DNA of 10,255 nucleotides from Promethearchaeati archaeon (GTDB lineage: Archaea; Asgardarchaeota; Heimdallarchaeia; Heimdallarchaeales; Heimdallarchaeaceae), in NCBI GenBank assembly GCA_013166775.1, contig JABLTJ010000053.1, forward strand, positions 1 through 10,255. Reading direction: 5' to 3'. Below the pieces are notes generated by a model. It ran no database searches. It saw only the letters and a program-made list of their open reading frames with translations, and was not told where the DNA came from. Each line of letters starts with the position of its first letter. Position 1 is the first letter of the stretch. Below, piece after piece: positions 493-7,328 of this stretch. The translations under genes and the position numbers were made by a program.

Positions 493-2325
493 TCATTTTT
501 TAATAAACTCATAGTATTTCCGGATGAAATCATCCCATTCAGAAAGTTGTTTAAGTTGCTTTTCGGTTCTCATTGTTAATTTTTCTGCTAATCTATACAA
601 CCCTTTTTCATCTGCTATTTTTTGTGTTTCAACTAGAAGAATTTTTGCTTTCTCAAAATCAAGATCGACCATGGATTTCTGAGCTTTTAACCAATGTGTC
701 AGTATTTGCAAATTATTAGCTTCAAGTCTAAGATGATATACATTTTGTTTCTTGGCTAAATCAGTTAACTCTCCTAGATAGTGTTCTAATTCTTCTAATA
801 CTTGAATATCTCCTGACATGCTGAATTCATTCATTAATAACTCACATAAATTGATGAGAGCAATAATATGAAAACCAAATCTTGTAAATTCTTCTTCAAC
901 AACTTTAATTAAAATGTCAACTGCTTTCATCCAGTCTCTTGGACGGGTACTATTTTTTAAAACTAATGCATGGGCTGTTTGATTCATTAGCTCAAAATGA
1001 TTAGTAGGATGAAGTTTAACAAATGCTTCAAGTTCTTTTTGATATTTGATGTATAATGGTTCATCGTTTTTGTCTATTGAGATTTGTATTAATCTAAACA
1101 ATGATCGGGCAATGTTAAGCTCAGCATTAAATCTTCTAAATAATTCCAAGGATTTGTTTACATATTCCAAAGCTAGATTATAATTTCCCTTCATATGATA
1201 TGCTTTTCCCATTTCGATTAGAAAGAAAGGCTCACTTACTACATTTTTGTTATACTTGAACATTTCAAGAACAGAGTGAGATGTTTCTATTACTTTGTCA
1301 AATTCTCCTTTATCAAAAAGTGCATTTACTAAGAAAAGTGAGAATATATTTACGCCATAAGCATCATCCATTTGCTTTGAAAGATTAACTGCTTCAGTCA
1401 TTTGCTCAACAGCAGTATCAATGTCTCCTTCTACCCATTCAATGATTGCTTTTCCGAGGAGAACAAGAGCTTTTTCTTTATGTGTTGTTTCGTGTTCTAA
1501 TTTGGGTAAAATTTTTTTGAAAATTGCTATTGCTTTCTCTGGTTCTCCACTTTGTCTATATATCATAGCTTTGAAATAAACCATCCAATCATGCGGTATT
1601 CCTAATTTCTTGAAATATTCTATCGATATATCAGTATATTTCATTGCAAGAGTAAATCTACCAATTCCTCTATAGCTTTGAGCTAAATTCGAAGCAAAAC
1701 TTGCTTTCCAAATTTCACTTTTTGTATCTTTTGCTAGTTGAAAACCAGCTTGGTAATGATCAATAGCATCCTCAAAAGCATCAGATTGAAACTCACAAAG
1801 ACCAAACAATCGATAATAATACAATTGCATTTGTATGTCATTAAATGATTGAATTAATGAGTAACCAGATTTTGCAGTTTCTAAAGCAAGTTTAGCTTTA
1901 CCCATCCAACTTAAACAAGCACCTTTAATGAAGAATAACCATGATTTACGAATTCGAAAATCGTATTCATCTTGATTTAGAATTTCTTCAAATTTATTTT
2001 CAGTTTCTTCAACTTGAGTAATAGATTTCTTGTACTGTTGACCAAGTAATAAACATCTAGCCTCTATTATGTGAGTATCTATTAACAGTAATTTATCATT
2101 TAATACTTCACTTTCAGAAGTAATCGTTTTTATAATTACTAAACCCTTTTCCCAAAATCCCATACTAGCTGTAAAAAGTGCCTTGATTATTTTTGCTCTA
2201 ATTAGTAATACGTTTTGTTGTTCTTTCTTTTCAAACTCCTCTAGTTTTTCAAGAGCTTCCTTAATTTTACCTTCATTTCCTAATTTGATTATTTCTTGTA
2301 GCTCTTTATTCTTCCCATCTAACAA
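493..2325 (-). CDS. Tetratricopeptide repeat (TPR, MalT-like) protein, 610 aa
   Basis: Repeated TPR helix pairs (e.g. LGKAIIEWVEGDIDTAVEQMTEAVNLS, MGKAYHMKGNYNLALEYVNKSLELF). TTG start with a GGGGA SD-like motif at 2337-2333. Confidence 0.88.
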   Translation of the reverse strand: MLDGKNKELQEIIKLGNEGKIKEALEKLEEFEKKEQQNVLLIRAKIIKALFTASMGFWEKGLVIIKTITSESEVLNDKLLLIDTHIIEARCLLLGQQYKKSITQVEETENKFEEILNQDEYDFRIRKSWLFFIKGACLSWMGKAKLALETAKSGYSLIQSFNDIQMQLYYYRLFGLCEFQSDAFEDAIDHYQAGFQLAKDTKSEIWKASFASNLAQSYRGIGRFTLAMKYTDISIEYFKKLGIPHDWMVYFKAMIYRQSGEPEKAIAIFKKILPKLEHETTHKEKALVLLGKAIIEWVEGDIDTAVEQMTEAVNLSKQMDDAYGVNIFSLFLVNALFDKGEFDKVIETSHSVLEMFKYNKNVVSEPFFLIEMGKAYHMKGNYNLALEYVNKSLELFRRFNAELNIARSLFRLIQISIDKNDEPLYIKYQKELEAFVKLHPTNHFELMNQTAHALVLKNSTRPRDWMKAVDILIKVVEEEFTRFGFHIIALINLCELLMNEFSMSGDIQVLEELEHYLGELTDLAKKQNVYHLRLEANNLQILTHWLKAQKSMVDLDFEKAKILLVETQKIADEKGLYRLAEKLTMRTEKQLKQLSEWDDFIRKYYEFIKK

Positions 2326-2427: not shown

Positions 2428-3036
2428 TTAGCTACGTTTAATTTTTATTTCATCTTTCTTTTCTATCATTTTCTTTTCTTTAAGAAATTCCTCAGTTTCT
2501 GATTCAAGAACATCTAATTTGAATTCTCTCTCTATAGTTCGTTCTCTGCTTGCGAGTTCAGCTTCTAAAAGATATAAGAAAGTTTGTTGTTGATTACTCT
2601 CTTGTGAAAGATGAATGATTGTATCTATCTCATTGTTAAGTTGTTCAAAATCTTCATCTGTGATTTCATCTATTGATCCTGAGGAATCTATATCAAAAGT
2701 AGTTATAACAAGATTAAGAATAGACTCCATTAAAGAAGAATTCTGAGTTATTTTTTCACTAAAAGAAATAATTAATCGTTTCAGTTCTTTTTCTCCAATT
2801 AATGCTATCTCACCTGGAGTAATTTTTTTCCAAGGAAAACTTGTTTTCTTTACATCTCTTATTTTTCTAGTAATTTTTTTTTGATCTGATTCAGTTTTTG
2901 GCTTTGATTCAATTTTTGCCAGTCTTTCTTCTAACTCTTTCATTCTTTTTTTCTTACGTTCGTAATAAGCTCTTTGTCTATCAGCGTTTGTTTTATATTT
3001 TCTTGGTCGTCCACCTTTGTTCTTTTCTTCTGACAT
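2428..3036 (-). CDS. Putative DNA-binding protein, 202 aa: AT-hook-like GRPRK motif, bZIP-like basic region with short zipper, C-terminal coiled coil
   Basis: ATG with a strong GTGAGGT SD (3049-3043). N-terminus GGRPRKYKTNADRQRAYYERKKKRMKELEERLAKIES; charged helical C-terminus. Confidence 0.75.
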   Translation of the reverse strand: MSEEKNKGGRPRKYKTNADRQRAYYERKKKRMKELEERLAKIESKPKTESDQKKITRKIRDVKKTSFPWKKITPGEIALIGEKELKRLIISFSEKITQNSSLMESILNLVITTFDIDSSGSIDEITDEDFEQLNNEIDTIIHLSQESNQQQTFLYLLEAELASRERTIEREFKLDVLESETEEFLKEKKMIEKKDEIKIKRS

Positions 3037-3153
3037 TTTTTTACCTCACATATATTACTTTTAAATCGATACTTAAAAGAGTTTCGTATTGTTACAAAAG
3101 ACTTATAAGGTTTCGTAACAAAGTATTGTAACAAGACAAAAAGGAGAAGTTAT
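3037..3153. promoter_or_regulatory. Divergent promoter with repeated operator-like sites
   Basis: Minus-strand TTTAAAA (3065-3059), plus-strand TTATAA (3103-3108), SD AGGAG (3142-3146). Repeats: GTTTCGTA at 3081 and 3110; GTATTGTWACAA at 3086 and 3123. Confidence 0.6.
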
Positions 3154-3981
3154 ATGACTGAAAAAAATATTGAAATAAATTTAGAGAGACTACCAATTGG
3201 AATTAAATATCTCAAAGAAAGAGATATGCCTAAAGATTTCAATACCATAAAGAATCCAAAAGCACTTTCCTTTTGTGATGCGGCAAGATTACTGCATGAA
3301 GAAGACCACCCAAATGGATTAGTTGTGACATTGGAATCATTAAAAGCATGTAAATGGTGTCCTGTAAGTCTTGGTTTAAAGAAACCAGAGACAGGTTTAG
3401 AGAAGAACATAGATCTTCTTTTTGATGATCTAAATCAAGGAGTTCATATTTTTAATACTATAGACAAAGTAACTGAACCAGATGTTGTTACATTAGTCAG
3501 TGATCGTGAAAATTTTGAAAAACTGATAGAGACCATTGGATTAGATAATTTTACCAGGGAATATTTTGACCAAATAAACTTCAATGCACTCTCATTGTTT
3601 ACTGGAGTAGAGTTTTCTTCAAAACGAGAGAAAAGAAAACGCAGGCGTAAGTTACGTAGCATTAGGTTCTTCCAATGGTTGTTTGCTTCAAGATTCGCAT
3701 TTAACAATAAACTCATGACCTGGATTCTCACAGCATTATTGAAGCAATACTGGTTCTCTCGAATGATGGATCCAATACTTAGAAAATACAGTACTGGCAT
3801 GTCTTATTGTTATACAGCTTCTGCCATCCCATTAGTTACTCAAAAGGCAAATGTAGTTTTGGCTGAATCAGGACCAATAACTTGGGGTAAATTAGATAGA
3901 GACTCTCTACTTGTTGGTTTACCCAATTCATTATTTGAGACTCTAGAATCTAAAAGTACACTTCAACTGATAAAGGATTAA
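3154..3981 (+). CDS. DUF169 (COG2043)-like protein, 275 aa
   Basis: The motif order PIGIK...FCDAAR...CKWCPVSLGL...EPDVV...C...IP...K-x-N...LLVGLP matches the DUF169 pattern as I recall it; SD AGGAG upstream. Confidence 0.7.
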   Translation: MTEKNIEINLERLPIGIKYLKERDMPKDFNTIKNPKALSFCDAARLLHEEDHPNGLVVTLESLKACKWCPVSLGLKKPETGLEKNIDLLFDDLNQGVHIFNTIDKVTEPDVVTLVSDRENFEKLIETIGLDNFTREYFDQINFNALSLFTGVEFSSKREKRKRRRKLRSIRFFQWLFASRFAFNNKLMTWILTALLKQYWFSRMMDPILRKYSTGMSYCYTASAIPLVTQKANVVLAESGPITWGKLDRDSLLVGLPNSLFETLESKSTLQLIKD

Positions 3982-4025: not shown

Positions 4026-4249
4026 TCATTCCTTAATGAACTCGTAATATTTCCGGATGAAATCATCCTACTGGGATAATTGACCCATTAATTTTTTTTG
4101 TTGTGGGTCAACTTCTCCGCAAGTCTATACATGCCTTATTCGTCAACTATCTTCCAAGTACTCTCAAGAAGTGTTTTTGCTTTTTGGAAATCAAGCTCTA
4201 CCACAGATTTCTGAGCTTTTAACCAATGGGTCATTATTTGCAGGTTGTT
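4026..4249 (-). pseudogene. 3' remnant of a TPR gene paralogous to 493..2325
   Basis: Translates as NNLQIMTHWLKAQKSVVELDFQKAKTLLESTWKIVDE*GMYRLAEKLT/QQKKLMGQLSQ*DDFIRKYYEFIKE*. About 53 of 74 aa (hand count) are identical to the C-terminus encoded by 493..717. Internal stops at 4136-4138 and 4068-4070; 1-nt deletion near 4104. Confidence 0.92.
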
Positions 4250-4722
4250 TACTCAGATTCCTTAATGGGTTCTTTTTCAATAGTCTCAGACTCAAGTTCC
4301 AGTTCTGGATCTGGTTCAAGCACATATTCAGTTACTGATTTCTTTCCTGTATCCTTAAAATCAATGGCATCTCCACCACAATCATAGCAAAACTTGGCAT
4401 TATCAGGCAAAGGTATTTTGCAACTATCACACATTTTTGCTCCCCTAACAGGGACACCACAGTTTGCACAAAACATAGCCTTGTCTTGGATTAGTTTCTC
4501 ACATTCGAAACACTTTCGTTTGTCAGCAAAGACTGTACCTTTCATCTTTTCAAACTGATCTATGCATTTTTCCTCGATTTTACCTTCAAGCTCAGCCCAT
4601 TGGGTTTTATATCTTCGGTTCAAAGAAAACCTTCCTAAAAGCGAAGCGAGAATACCTGAGAGAATACCTCCAGCTAAACCAATACCTGCCATGATTCCTA
4701 TTGTTACCCAATTTATTACCAT
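4249..4722 (-). CDS. Membrane-anchored double zinc ribbon (DZR) protein, 157 aa
   Basis: Gly-rich N-terminal TM helix; four CxxC pairs (CFEC, FCANCG, CDSC, FCYDCG); acidic tail; SD GGAGT at 4737-4733. Confidence 0.88.
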   Translation of the reverse strand: MVINWVTIGIMAGIGLAGGILSGILASLLGRFSLNRRYKTQWAELEGKIEEKCIDQFEKMKGTVFADKRKCFECEKLIQDKAMFCANCGVPVRGAKMCDSCKIPLPDNAKFCYDCGGDAIDFKDTGKKSVTEYVLEPDPELELESETIEKEPIKESE

Positions 4723-4789
4723 TTTTATATTTACTCCATATTAGATTGATTTTATTATACTTTTTTTTACTTTTAACCTAAATTATACT

Positions 4790-7276
4790 TTAATTCTCTT
4801 TTTGCGATTCAACTTCCTTAAAATCATCAGCGTCTTTTTTAATGACAGTACCACAGATATAGCAATAAGGACCAATAGAGATTGTTTCGCATTTTGGACA
4901 ACAAGCATCTTTTTTCATTTCATCCAAGAGATCCTTAACTAAATCTTTGATTTTACCTTCAGTCTCCTTTTCAACTTCATCCTTAATATCTGGTGATTTG
5001 TCAGGTGTCTCGTCTGGAATTGGTTGCTCTGTTGTAGGTTTATCTGGAGTTAGTTCTGGAGGTAATTGTCTTTCTGAAGGAATTTCACTATCTGGAGGAG
5101 GAATAGATTCATTAGAAGGAGGTGGTTGACTTAAAGACTCCTCGGGAGTTGAAGGTTCAGAAATTTTAGACCTTCGAATTCTCGGTCTGAGACCACCACC
5201 GGATTGAACAATCTGAGCTCCAATAATTATCCCACTAATAGTAATGGAAATAACTATCGCTGAAACATAAGCAATAATATTTTCTGCTATAATTAAATCA
5301 GATATTTGAAATGGATGATTGAGAGGATCAGTAGGATCACGTCCTTTATTAATTTCCTCTAAATCAGTAAAACCATCTCCATCTGTGTCAGGATTAGTTG
5401 GATCAGTTATATATCCATCAAGCCCTTCTTGGATTTCTTCATCATCATTTATTCCATCGCTATCGCTGTCTGCAAGCCAAGGATTCGTTCCATTAAGGTA
5501 TTCATCGTAATTAGTTAAGGTATCTAGATCAGGATCACCTGAAGCATCATTAACAAGAGGATTTAGATTATTAACAACTTCCCAACCATCGGGCATAAGA
5601 TCATTATCAGTATCAAAATCATTAGGATCTGTATTTTCAAGATATTCATTATAGTTAGTGAGATTGTCAAAGTCAGGATCACTTGCTGAATCATTCAATC
5701 TTGGATTAAGAGAGTTAGTTACTTCCCAAGCATCAGGCATCAAATCATCATCACTATCACTTTTATAGAAATATGTATGGTGAATCATTAACTCATCATA
5801 ATTGGATAGTCCATCTAAATCCAAATCTTCAATTGAATCATTGAATAGAGGATTGAGTCCTACTTGTACTTCTTGTCCATCGAGTATTAAATCATCATCA
5901 GAGTCAGCATCGGTACTATTTGTACCATAAAATTCCTCAGTTAAATCATCCAAATAATCACAATCACTATCTAATTGTCCCGTATGAAAAATAGAACCTC
6001 CAAAACAATGCCATTGCTCTGGACCAGAAGAAACTACACCCGTAAAACCATAGCAATATAGTGTTTGATTTTGCATTCCTATCATTTCTAAAATACCATC
6101 ACTATCTAAATCAACTAAAGCTTGAGTAGAACGAAAAACCATAGTTGATGTAAAATTCCATTCTTCTCCACCTGTGTGATTAAGACAGTATAGCTTGTAA
6201 TCATCAGAGCCTATCAGTACTTCTAATGTGCCATCACCATCTATATCAGCAATACTAGGTGAAGAATAAACAAAATAACCTGTTGTGTAGCTCCATTCTA
6301 CACTGCCAGTGTGATCAAAGCAGTAAAGATTGTAATCTAAAGATCCAACTACTACTTCTAAAGTACCATCAGCATCCAGATCTGCGATTACAGGTGAAGA
6401 TTTGATTTCGAGAGATGTTGTATAACTCCACTCTAAACCTCCAGTATGGCTAATGCAATAGAAAACATTATCATATGATCCTATTAAAACTTCTAAAGTA
6501 CCATCGTCATCTAAATCAGCTACTGCAGGTGTAGAAACAATGCTATCACCTGTTGTATAACTCCACTCTATTACCCCTAAGTGATTCAAACAATATAGTT
6601 TATTATCAGATGATCCAAACAACACTTCTAAGGTACCGTCTGCATCCAAATCAGCAATACAAGGAGATGAATCTATTCTATCACCCGCTATGAAACTCCA
6701 TTCCATACCGCCAGAGTTATTTAAACAGTAAAGCTTGTAATCCCAGGATCCAAACAACACTTCTAAACTATCATCACCATCTAAATCAGCTACTGCTGGA
6801 GAAGTACGAATAGTGCTACCTGCCTGATAGCTCCATTTCAAACCACCTGAATGATTAAGACAATACATTCTTTTATCATCTGATCCAATTAAAACCTCAA
6901 GAGTTCCATCACCATCAAGATCAGCTGCTGCAGGAGAAGTAGAATATATACAATCATATGTCCTAAAAAACCATTCCCTAATGCCATAATTATTCAAACA
7001 ATAAATTTTATGATCAACTGAACCGATTAAAACCTCTAATGAACCATCTCCATCAAGATCAGCTACAAAAGGTGTATTTCCATAAAACATTTCTGTATAG
7101 CTCCATTTTTCATAGACTCCCATTGCCTCAGGGAGAAATATATAATCATTATTATCAGATATTTTTGCTTCTACTTCAATTGGTTTAATAGAAGCCACTC
7201 CTATTTCTAGTATTATTATCAGCAAATAACAACTTATGATGATTTTTTTTATTTTTGGTGAATTTTCTTGTCTCAG
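4790..7276 (-). CDS. Single-pass surface protein: signal peptide, 8 FG-GAP-like propeller blades, TSP3-like Ca-binding repeats, TM helix, Pro/Glu/Ser/Thr-rich linker, zinc ribbon
   Basis: Eight SP-x-x-ADLDGDG-x-LEV repeats; D-x-D-x-D-G/L repeats; TM IIAYVSAIVISITISGIIIGAQIV; C-terminal CPKC...YCYICG. The ORF track starts at 7225, but the frame is open to 7285, and a CTG at 7276 with SD GAGGGAG restores a basic signal-peptide n-region (start uncertain). Confidence 0.88.
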   Translation of the reverse strand: MRQENSPKIKKIIISCYLLIIILEIGVASIKPIEVEAKISDNNDYIFLPEAMGVYEKWSYTEMFYGNTPFVADLDGDGSLEVLIGSVDHKIYCLNNYGIREWFFRTYDCIYSTSPAAADLDGDGTLEVLIGSDDKRMYCLNHSGGLKWSYQAGSTIRTSPAVADLDGDDSLEVLFGSWDYKLYCLNNSGGMEWSFIAGDRIDSSPCIADLDADGTLEVLFGSSDNKLYCLNHLGVIEWSYTTGDSIVSTPAVADLDDDGTLEVLIGSYDNVFYCISHTGGLEWSYTTSLEIKSSPVIADLDADGTLEVVVGSLDYNLYCFDHTGSVEWSYTTGYFVYSSPSIADIDGDGTLEVLIGSDDYKLYCLNHTGGEEWNFTSTMVFRSTQALVDLDSDGILEMIGMQNQTLYCYGFTGVVSSGPEQWHCFGGSIFHTGQLDSDCDYLDDLTEEFYGTNSTDADSDDDLILDGQEVQVGLNPLFNDSIEDLDLDGLSNYDELMIHHTYFYKSDSDDDLMPDAWEVTNSLNPRLNDSASDPDFDNLTNYNEYLENTDPNDFDTDNDLMPDGWEVVNNLNPLVNDASGDPDLDTLTNYDEYLNGTNPWLADSDSDGINDDEEIQEGLDGYITDPTNPDTDGDGFTDLEEINKGRDPTDPLNHPFQISDLIIAENIIAYVSAIVISITISGIIIGAQIVQSGGGLRPRIRRSKISEPSTPEESLSQPPPSNESIPPPDSEIPSERQLPPELTPDKPTTEQPIPDETPDKSPDIKDEVEKETEGKIKDLVKDLLDEMKKDACCPKCETISIGPYCYICGTVIKKDADDFKEVESQKEN
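5320..5975 (-). repeat. About nine thrombospondin type-3-like acidic repeats (intragenic)
   Basis: DSDCDYLDDLTE, DSDDDLILDGQE, DLDLDGLSNYDE, DSDDDLMPDAWE, DPDFDNLTNYNE, DTDNDLMPDGWE, DPDLDTLTNYDE, DSDSDGINDDEE, DTDGDGFTDLEE. Confidence 0.8.
6045..7110 (-). repeat. Eight ~135-bp (45-aa) tandem FG-GAP-like blade repeats (intragenic)
   Basis: Periodic protein motif, also visible in DNA (e.g. gatccaaacaacacttctaa near 6612 and 6747; catctaaatcagctactgc near 6508 and 6778). Confidence 0.9.
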
Positions 7277-7328
7277 TTTTCTCCCTCAATATTCTATATT
7301 ACGTCTTTTTTTTCGATTTTTCTTTCTC

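Follow-up and report, generated by a model that had tools for sequence, protein, structure and literature searches.

A heimdallarchaeial family of small helical proteins with a bZIP-like head, a candidate operator in the own promoter and a TPR partner gene

The window, i.e. the whole stretch of DNA that was analysed, comprises 10,255 nucleotides. Its minus strand carries a gene for a 202-aa protein (P0001; 2428..3036, stop codon included, as given by the ORF list and its translation), called the regulator below after its presumed role. A second gene, here called the partner gene, lies 102 nt downstream on the same strand (493..2325) and encodes a 610-aa all-TPR protein with a MalT-like TPR region. 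The 117-nt intergenic region contains repeats around a TTATAA word, among them a predicted operator (O1; 3082..3099, unstranded). A Shine-Dalgarno-like GTGAGGT (3043..3049, minus strand) is located 7 nt before the ATG and is kept as GTGAGG or GTGAGA in orthologs.

The regulator is composed of a short N-terminal head and a larger helical domain, all encoded on the minus strand. The head starts with an AT-hook-like arm, GGRPRKY (residues 8-14; 2995..3015), that is non-helical in the AF2 model. It is followed by the basic region NADRQRAYYERKKKR (residues 17-31; 2944..2988), which aligns with the basic regions of HapX and Pap1 and is modelled as a helix with a pLDDT of 81-92, and by a short zipper-like helix MKELEERLAKIESK (residues 32-45; 2902..2943) of about two heptads that stops before Pro46. 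The C-terminal all-helical domain (residues 66-202; 2431..2841) comprises AF2 helices 74-79, 82-117 and 127-201. In the model as a whole (pLDDT 74.5), residues 1-16 are non-helical, residues 17-43 form a single helix and residues 45-65 a disordered linker. Invariant positions in the subfamily alignment (A1) are found in all parts of the protein: G9, R10, P11 and R12 in the arm, R20, Q21, A23, Y24, E26, R27 and K29 in the basic region, and W69, K71, E146, Q149, L156, E158, A159, E160 and R166 in the C-domain. A family-wide motif, LYLLEAELASRER, lies inside the 75-residue C-terminal helix according to the model and the alignment. The C-domain is probably the part responsible for dimerisation or partner binding. 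Homodimer prediction for the full-length protein with alignment A1 gave 0.23 and 0.27, against a mark of 0.42.

A Foldseek search of the AF2 model against the PDB returned no match at E ≤ 0.001, and its top matches were generic helical hairpins (TraM, 2q0o, with a probability of 0.97 but an E-value of 0.5). Scans with NCBIfam, PHROGs and PADLOC gave nothing significant for the 202-aa regulator. The ESM Atlas look-alikes of residues 1-60 were small hypothetical proteins of viruses and bacteria; at 0.83-0.84 they stay under the 0.9 level and count as leads only. The label 'phasin', attached to one homolog by one source, was dismissed as an automatic coiled-coil annotation.

The partner protein is matched by TPR models alone in Pfam (TPR_12, 4.4e-17; TPR_MalT, 2.4e-12), where neither an HTH nor an NTPase domain was detected. 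A homologous TPR gene of about 610 aa is located downstream of the regulator gene, on the same strand, at 13/13 subfamily loci with at least 900 nt of downstream sequence, and the TPR sequences diverge to about 24-29% identity. Co-transcription of the two genes of the window is uncertain, since both a T7 tract and a TATA-like word are present in the gap between them. In the same genome, a paralog (paralog 1) immediately follows a homologous TPR gene of 670 aa, and another short paralog has a convergent TPR gene. As the pairing is kept in these two paralog pairs with another gene order, the link between both genes appears functional and not merely transcriptional. It is probably physical, and by analogy the TPR protein may act as a sensor or modulator of the regulator. 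A subfamily with members of 280-303 aa neighbours an actin homolog, not a TPR gene. A decayed TPR fragment is also present about 1 kb away.

The archaeal, Asgard-like character that the earlier note had attributed to the protein is borne out by its homologs, which belong to the Heimdall group. All 55 full-length homologs (about 200 aa) are Heimdall/Asgard proteins annotated as 'hypothetical protein'. An exhaustive phmmer search of 1.84 billion representative proteins gave 35 matches, all of them family members of about 200 aa or fragments thereof, with no eukaryotic relative among them. The best 120 matches of an N-terminal profile search were all Asgard except for one odd repeat protein. A GTDB-wide pattern scan (one genome per species) confirmed 34 loci, 33 in the Heimdall group and one on a Conchiformibius contig. 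The head was present in 32 of 300 genomes sampled evenly from the phylum, all in the class of the window. The carriers fall in three families (21/28, 8/11 and 2/21), and the highest copy number in a genome is six. The head was found in 0/15 genomes of the sister families of the same order and in none of the other classes searched. The result is an unannotated basic-helix family without a Pfam, NCBIfam or PHROG model. No paper describing the family or any Asgard bZIP-like factor was found in the literature searched; the present analysis established its TPR pairing, the fixed operator position near -61, the inner operator bases specific to each subfamily, the Tyr(+8) clade and the range across the phylum.

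The earlier note had proposed a YAP-type bZIP-like basic region at 2905-3015, with its Asn and first zipper Leu spaced as in bZIP factors. The ORF and the coordinates were reproduced, and residues 17-44, NADRQRAYYERKKKRMKELEERLAKIES, map to 2905-2988. When residues 1-60 were searched against 177,635 PDB sequences, the top match was the Yap-type bZIP HapX (7aw7_D), at a marginal E-value of 0.053. N17-S44 and HapX are identical at 13/28 positions, ungapped from Asn17. With profile A2, built on the 26 closest heads of the family, HapX was found at E = 1.7e-5, and a profile of all subfamilies (A3) ranked HapX first (0.001) and Pap1 second (0.016), values to be read in the knowledge that short basic and coiled-coil segments yield optimistic E-values. 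Below HapX and Pap1, generic coiled coils follow in both profile lists. A shuffle control was performed with profile A2: the HapX segment scored 27.3 bits, compared to a mean of 1.8 for the shuffles (sd 1.3, maximum 10.8), and 0/1000 shuffles reached the HapX score. The score dropped to 14.0 after shuffling the basic part alone and to 6.1 after shuffling the zipper alone. Thus, the match rests on the order of the residues and not on their composition, and both halves contribute. The distance from the Asn (position 0) to the first Leu is +18, the canonical bZIP register, and all Pfam bZIP matches of the family share one offset, so the likeness and the register described in the earlier note hold. 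The Gln at +4, Ala at +6 and aromatic residue at +7 that are diagnostic of Yap proteins represent a derived fungal state, however, and the Yap-specific share of the likeness is therefore convergent and hardly inherited.

Whether the protein is a bZIP is a separate matter, and there the evidence points the other way. The profile searches suggested in the earlier note gave no Pfam bZIP match for the 202-aa window protein, even at E ≤ 10. Within the family, bZIP_1 (PF00170; 17/27 heads) and bZIP_2 (PF07716; 11/27) are the most often matched Pfam families, with a common ungapped offset. For ten family sequences scanned singly, the scores amount to 12-19 bits, with a best of 18.5 for bZIP_1 and 19.4 for bZIP_2, all under the gathering thresholds of 27.6 and 22.3 bits, respectively. 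The best E-values over 27 members are 7.7e-4 (bZIP_1) and 4.5e-4 (bZIP_2).

The basic signature of bZIP factors is N-x2-A-A-x2-[CS]-R, or N-x2-A-Q-x2-F-R for the Yap type, in which Ala(+3) contacts bases. The window protein carries N, R, Q, Y and Y at positions 0, 3, 4, 7 and 8 and deviates from both signatures. Over 133 members, position 0 is N80/D22/K20, i.e. Asn in 60% and otherwise D, K or R; position +3 is R131, where bZIPs carry Ala; position +4 is Q67/K59; position +7 is Y131 and position +8 is Y67/R62. Along with GRPR and R(+3), the A(+6), Y(+7) and ERKK are invariant features of the head. The basic region and zipper share one helix in a fixed register (Leu at +18 in 124/133), and conserved hydrophobic heptad positions are limited to +18 (L), +22 (V/L/I) and +25 (L/I/M), while at +29 a Leu occurs in 37 of the 133 members and a Pro in 26. 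A bZIP has a leucine zipper of about four or more heptads that forms a parallel dimeric coiled coil; here, about two heptads are present.

Two reservations made in the earlier note, a Tyr in place of the invariant Arg at +8 and a zipper of two heptads before a Pro, were both justified; the AF2 helix spans residues 17-43 and ends before Pro46. Its suggestion to verify whether orthologs keep the Arg was answered in the negative: Tyr occupies +8 throughout the window subfamily, and it is the paralogous subfamilies that keep N...R at 0 and +8. In a maximum-likelihood tree, all Tyr/Leu(+8) proteins fall in one group (86/88) that is nested among Arg(+8) groups, so the orthologs of the window protein are without Arg(+8). 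Judged from this tree, the root of which is uncertain, Arg(+8) is probably ancestral, and the window subfamily is best described as a derived, Tyr(+8), TPR-paired branch. On these sequence comparisons the protein seems bZIP-like in its presumed mode of action, yet membership of the bZIP family does not follow from them.

The AT-hook-like motif of the earlier note stands in part. A GRPR arm does precede the basic region, with R in 133/133 and P in 114/133 members, and weak Pfam AT_hook (PF02178) matches occur in 7/27 members (best E 6.2e-4; scores of 15.0 and 15.4 bits against a gathering threshold of 17.4 bits). The window protein, which reads GGRPRK and not RGRP, has no Pfam AT_hook match. 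Like the HMGA-type minor-groove motif described by PF02178, the arm has a G-R-P core with flanking basic residues and, as in an AT-hook, is placed next to A/T tracts, here those of the predicted operator; yet it occurs as a single copy fused to a basic helix.

The predicted operator O1 is TTTCGTATTGTTACAAAA (TTTCGTA-TTGT-TACAAAA), positioned at -63..-46 from the start codon and described by the pattern TTTYGTA-N4-TACRAAA. This pattern recurs at about -61 from the start codon, with at most two mismatches (mostly 0-1), in 18/18 subfamily genes, which span both subfamily clades, share 46-100% protein identity and have diverged flanks. In the promoter alignment of the window clade (A4), the region from about -100 to -35 is near-invariant, in contrast to its flanks and even to the genes upstream, which vary. 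The TTATAA word (3103..3108, unstranded), bracketed by repeats, is conserved in the window and at loci L005 and L036 and would serve as a TATA-like box; in the sister clade, TATTTAAAGG or TATATAAAGG stands here. Because TATA-like words are present on both sides of the operator, the operator may lie between TATA and start site or over the BRE. Further upstream (3110..3141, unstranded; repeat families D1-D3, I1 and I2), two degenerate sites are located, GTTTCGTAAC (3110-3119) and TATTGTAACAAGACAAAA (3124-3141). The former matches at 9/10 positions and is possibly an extra or cross-talk site, the latter has one mismatch to TTTYGT-N6-ACRAAA, and the sister clade has a perfect second operator site at -118. 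A reading in which the promoter holds four degenerate copies of GTTACGTAAC was rejected, as the footprint across orthologs fits TTTYGTA-N4-TACRAAA instead.

Beyond the subfamily, TTTYGT-N6-ACRAAA was found with at most one mismatch upstream of 35/40 family genes, versus 12 sites in 238,457 background positions; since the pattern was derived from the same promoters and the orthologs are kin, these enrichment figures overstate independence, and reversed patterns are equally rare. The exact O1 sequence occurs once in the 3.85-Mb genome, as does its reversed control, so its uniqueness is without statistical weight. The promoter of paralog 1 contains GTTACGTAAC, with a classic TTACGTAA core, which is likewise found once in the genome. 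The inner bases of the operator differ by subfamily: A-N4-T in that of the window and a GC-rich CYCRRG in the actin-linked one (e.g. TTTCGTCTCAGGACAAAA). Hence, the outer half-site tracks the invariant residues of the protein and the inner bases track the subfamily, as direct recognition by the family product predicts. The half-sites are separated by an N4 spacer with their centres about 11 bp apart, compared to abutting half-sites for bZIPs, so the grip on DNA may differ from the bZIP fork.

Taken together, we consider it probable (roughly 65%) that the window protein belongs to an undescribed, Heimdallarchaeia-only family of small all-helical DNA-binding autoregulators with a bZIP-like head, an operator in their own promoter and a TPR partner. 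The head would consist of the flexible GRPR(K)Y arm, a continuous basic helix (RQxAY[YR]ERKK) and about two coiled-coil heptads. In a dimer, each head would grip one half of TTTYGTA-N4-TACRAAA (3082-3099), the palindrome that borders the TATA-like box in the promoter of the regulator gene. The constant outer TTTYGT would be recognised by the invariant residues while the GRPR arm occupies the minor groove of the A/T flank, and the variable residues at positions 0, +4 and +8 would pair with the subfamily-specific inner bases. As the zipper is too short to hold the dimer, the long C-terminal helices probably do so. The regulator would act on its own transcription, most likely as a repressor, and probably on that of the TPR gene behind it as well; autorepression via promoter occlusion is the favoured mode. 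The ever-present TPR protein would bind the regulator, sense a signal and modulate the regulator's action. The likeness to bZIP factors is most plausibly that of a basic-helix module which was either built independently or borrowed from mobile elements.

Nearly all transcription regulators known from archaea belong to the bacterial type, with a helix-turn-helix or ribbon-helix-helix, and regulators combining a basic helix with a coiled coil, such as GvpE and AmzR, are rare exceptions in archaea. GvpE, the haloarchaeal gas-vesicle activator, has been likened to a bZIP protein (Kruger et al. 1998, cited in PMC6737238). A basic region and a leucine-zipper-like helix were proposed for its DNA binding, and it resembles the regulator in being archaeal and without an HTH. 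GvpE differs in its haloarchaeal origin, its size and gene context and the absence of a GRPR arm, and the searches performed here revealed no sequence relation. AmzR is an archaeal repressor of which the paired N-terminal basic helices bind promoters in a mode called reminiscent of bZIP/bHLH; it is a PAS-GAF one-component sensor, and its dominant purified species of ~116 kDa was read as a dimer (10.1101/2025.05.05.652248). It thus shows that promoter binding by basic helices exists in archaea, in a protein that is unrelated to the regulator in sequence and architecture. Pfam detected no PAS or GAF domain in the 202-aa regulator, and the presumed sensor, the TPR protein, is a separate gene.

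The pairing itself recalls TPR-based regulator systems. In RRNPP proteins the TPR sensor is fused to an HTH, and MalT combines TPRs with a STAND NTPase and a LuxR HTH; Rap proteins act on a separate DNA-binding protein. As in these systems (PlcR, AimR, Rap and MalT), a large TPR sensor-like protein would be functionally coupled to a DNA-binding element in the gene pair described here. The DNA binder is, in contrast, a separate bZIP-like protein and not a fused HTH, and homology is limited to generic TPR. No gene for a signalling peptide was seen. With the TPR gene as an obligate neighbour, the two genes may form a split sensor-regulator pair of a kind not seen before.

A first alternative is genuine homology with the eukaryotic bZIP domain, the regulator being either an ancestral relic in Heimdallarchaeia, the archaeal class closest to eukaryotes, or the outcome of an ancient transfer, with the arm and the C-domain as lineage-specific additions. 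Several observations agree with this. The family profiles rank Yap-type structures first and second among all PDB sequences, bZIP_1 and bZIP_2 are matched most often and at one offset, the canonical Asn-Leu spacing is accompanied by an order-dependent match of both the basic and zipper halves, and the family is restricted to Heimdallarchaeia. In addition, the paralogous subfamilies with N...R at 0/+8 make the Arg look ancestral, and the classic TTACGTAA core lies in a paralog's promoter. The resemblance to the fungal Yap/Pap1/HapX bZIPs (PDB 7aw7, 1gd2) also covers the continuous basic helix with a heptad Leu in the same register, shared Q-R-A-aromatic and E-R-K motifs and presumed palindromic targets.

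The differences nevertheless weigh heavier. Compared to Yap bZIPs, the regulator possesses in addition a GRPR arm and a helical C-domain of 135 aa; it has about two heptads versus four or more, Arg(+3) and not the base-contacting Ala, Tyr(+8) and not Arg, a variable Asn, and half-sites that are N4-spaced and not abutting, and its family is a prokaryotic one, limited to a single class of archaea. Pfam scores stay under the thresholds and are lacking for the window protein, the E-values are optimistic for segments of this kind, and the features that drive the best matches are the derived Yap state and would be convergent even if the domains were related. No eukaryotic protein surfaced in the exhaustive search, and the distribution is patchy even within the class. 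A reading of the protein as a bZIP is therefore not supported, and we regard common descent with the eukaryotic factors as unlikely.

A further argument against bZIP homology is that the arm-plus-basic module occurs without a zipper outside the archaeal family. The earlier note had cautioned that GRPRKY and NAERQRAYR-type motifs also exist elsewhere, and phage and bacterial proteins indeed carry the module. It was found, from GRPRKY to AYRERKK, in two viral contigs by a pattern scan of IMG/VR and in one bacterial contig (Conchiformibius). In one viral contig (L039) the module forms the C-terminus of a 73-aa ORF, in the other (L040) it makes up a 44-aa ORF between the genes of the small and large terminase subunits, and in the bacterial contig (L072) it is the C-terminus of a 315-aa ORF adjoining a DUF927 gene; a zipper is absent in each case. 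These loci follow the pattern GRPRKY-x-NAxRQKAYRERKK, with 62-86% identity over 21-26 residues (residues 8/9-29 for the viral loci and 6-31 for L072). The GRPRKY-NAERQRAYRERKK proteins of phages and bacteria thus have the same arm-plus-basic module as the Heimdall regulator, but in these phage and mobile-element forms it is terminal or stands alone, unlike in the regulator, where a zipper and a helical C-domain follow. A tblastn search of phage and plasmid collections with the 48-aa head gave no match, a negative of little weight because the low-complexity filter probably masks the Lys/Arg-rich query.

It is distinctly unlikely that the protein is no transcription factor at all but a coiled-coil scaffold, a nucleoid or RNA-binding protein or an adaptor of the TPR protein, with the palindromes being bound by something else. 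Such a role would suit a protein of mostly long helices without a recognisable fold relative, one homolog of which is named 'phasin' in one source, and the DNA-sequence specificity is indeed only predicted. Yet the palindrome occupies a fixed place in the family promoters, its inner bases change with the protein subfamily, and each genome-unique palindrome is located in the own promoter of a family member. The basic residues are moreover near-invariant, which is unexpected of a non-specific polycation. Least probable of all is a role as DNA-binding adaptor in a two-gene cassette of mobile or selfish nature, such as that of a ParR-like centromere binder or an addiction-module autoregulator instead of a cellular, signal-responsive regulator: the family is patchy and multi-copy with a variable gene order of the pair, a decayed TPR fragment lies nearby, the head module is common to phage and mobile-element proteins and one paralog pairs with an actin-like gene, but no integrase, transposase or replication gene was present near the loci examined, PADLOC yields only a generic TPR model, and the pair is about 46-100% identical within the genus while the flanking genes vary by species, as vertical descent predicts.

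On the preferred reading of a lineage-specific autoregulator, each family member comes with a predicted private operator, which lends itself directly to the design of tests of binding, of structure and of swapped specificity. Such tests would also make a pre-eukaryotic origin of bZIP-like DNA reading experimentally approachable, although convergence, or a module common to the family and mobile elements, is what the evidence favours at present. The boldest interpretation, which we hold to be improbable, is that the heimdallarchaeial GRPR-basic-zipper family is a genuine prokaryotic bZIP relative and that, at the same time, the window subfamily forms a split one-component system of a new kind, its bZIP-like autoregulator being governed by a TPR sensor encoded separately. 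If the family were a bZIP relative, bZIP DNA reading would predate eukaryotes and would have been inherited from, or exchanged with, their nearest archaeal lineage.

One further protein, P0129, was considered as a fusion of regulator and TPR protein and dismissed, as it consists of low-complexity tandem repeats and has no Pfam match. This 632-aa protein contains five or six tandem copies of NAERQKAYRERKK.

Within the same genome as the window, a 670-aa homologous TPR gene is followed by a 188-aa paralog of the bZIP-like regulator (L006 1134-3789; G000:C64). The sequence GTTACGTAAC (L006 3194-3203), which contains the classic TTACGTAA core, is located 20-29 nt upstream of the start codon of this paralog and occurs nowhere else in the genome. 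As a 9/10 copy of GTTACGTAAC is present in the promoter of the window regulator (3110-3119), cross-talk between this regulator and the 188-aa paralog is possible.

A decayed copy of the TPR-gene 3'-end was identified at window positions 4100-4260 (4026-4249 in the earlier note), based on both tblastn (TPR residues 537-584 matched with 77% amino-acid identity) and DNA alignment (about 79% against positions 540-760). The stop of a zinc-ribbon gene immediately precedes this copy, an arrangement that suggests that the remnant was left by an older duplicated regulator/TPR cassette that has since been disrupted. Window 4249-7757 (-) encodes two membrane-anchored double-zinc-ribbon proteins of 157 and 142 aa (Pfam DZR) that are paralogous to each other. 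Between both lies an 811-aa repeat-rich surface protein, which also carries a zinc ribbon at its tail end.

A DUF169 protein gene (window 3154-3981 (+); PF02596, 8.9e-12) is divergent from the regulator. The intergenic region with the predicted operator is common to both genes, and the DUF169 gene could be co-regulated in the window; this neighbor is not kept at orthologous regulator loci.

A 301-aa paralog with the head GRPRKY...DAERKKAYRERKK is directly followed on the same strand by a 378-aa actin homolog (L007 3789-5857; G000:C97, about 141.8-143.9 kb). In this actin-linked subfamily, palindromes of the TTTYGTC-N4-GACRAAA type come in pairs, one near -78 and the other near -32.

The basic module was also found outside the archaeal family. 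A GRPR-basic module without zipper is carried by phage and mobile-element ORFs, namely a 44-aa ORF flanked by the terminase small and large subunit genes (viral contig L040, 721-855), a 73-aa viral ORF (L039 2354-2575) and a 315-aa ORF overlapping the start of a DUF927 gene on a Conchiformibius contig (L072 1640-2587). P0129, a low-complexity, 632-aa protein (L075 498-2396; Logan SRR30339709), looks eukaryote-like; it has neither GRPR arm nor Pfam match and repeats the basic motif (T/S)NAE(R/K)QKAYRERKK five or six times in tandem.

In a same-genus genome, one ortholog (L016; G021:C133:43375-43971) contains an in-frame TGA within the matched region and may be a pseudogene or reflect a sequencing error; a second, intact copy is present in that genome.
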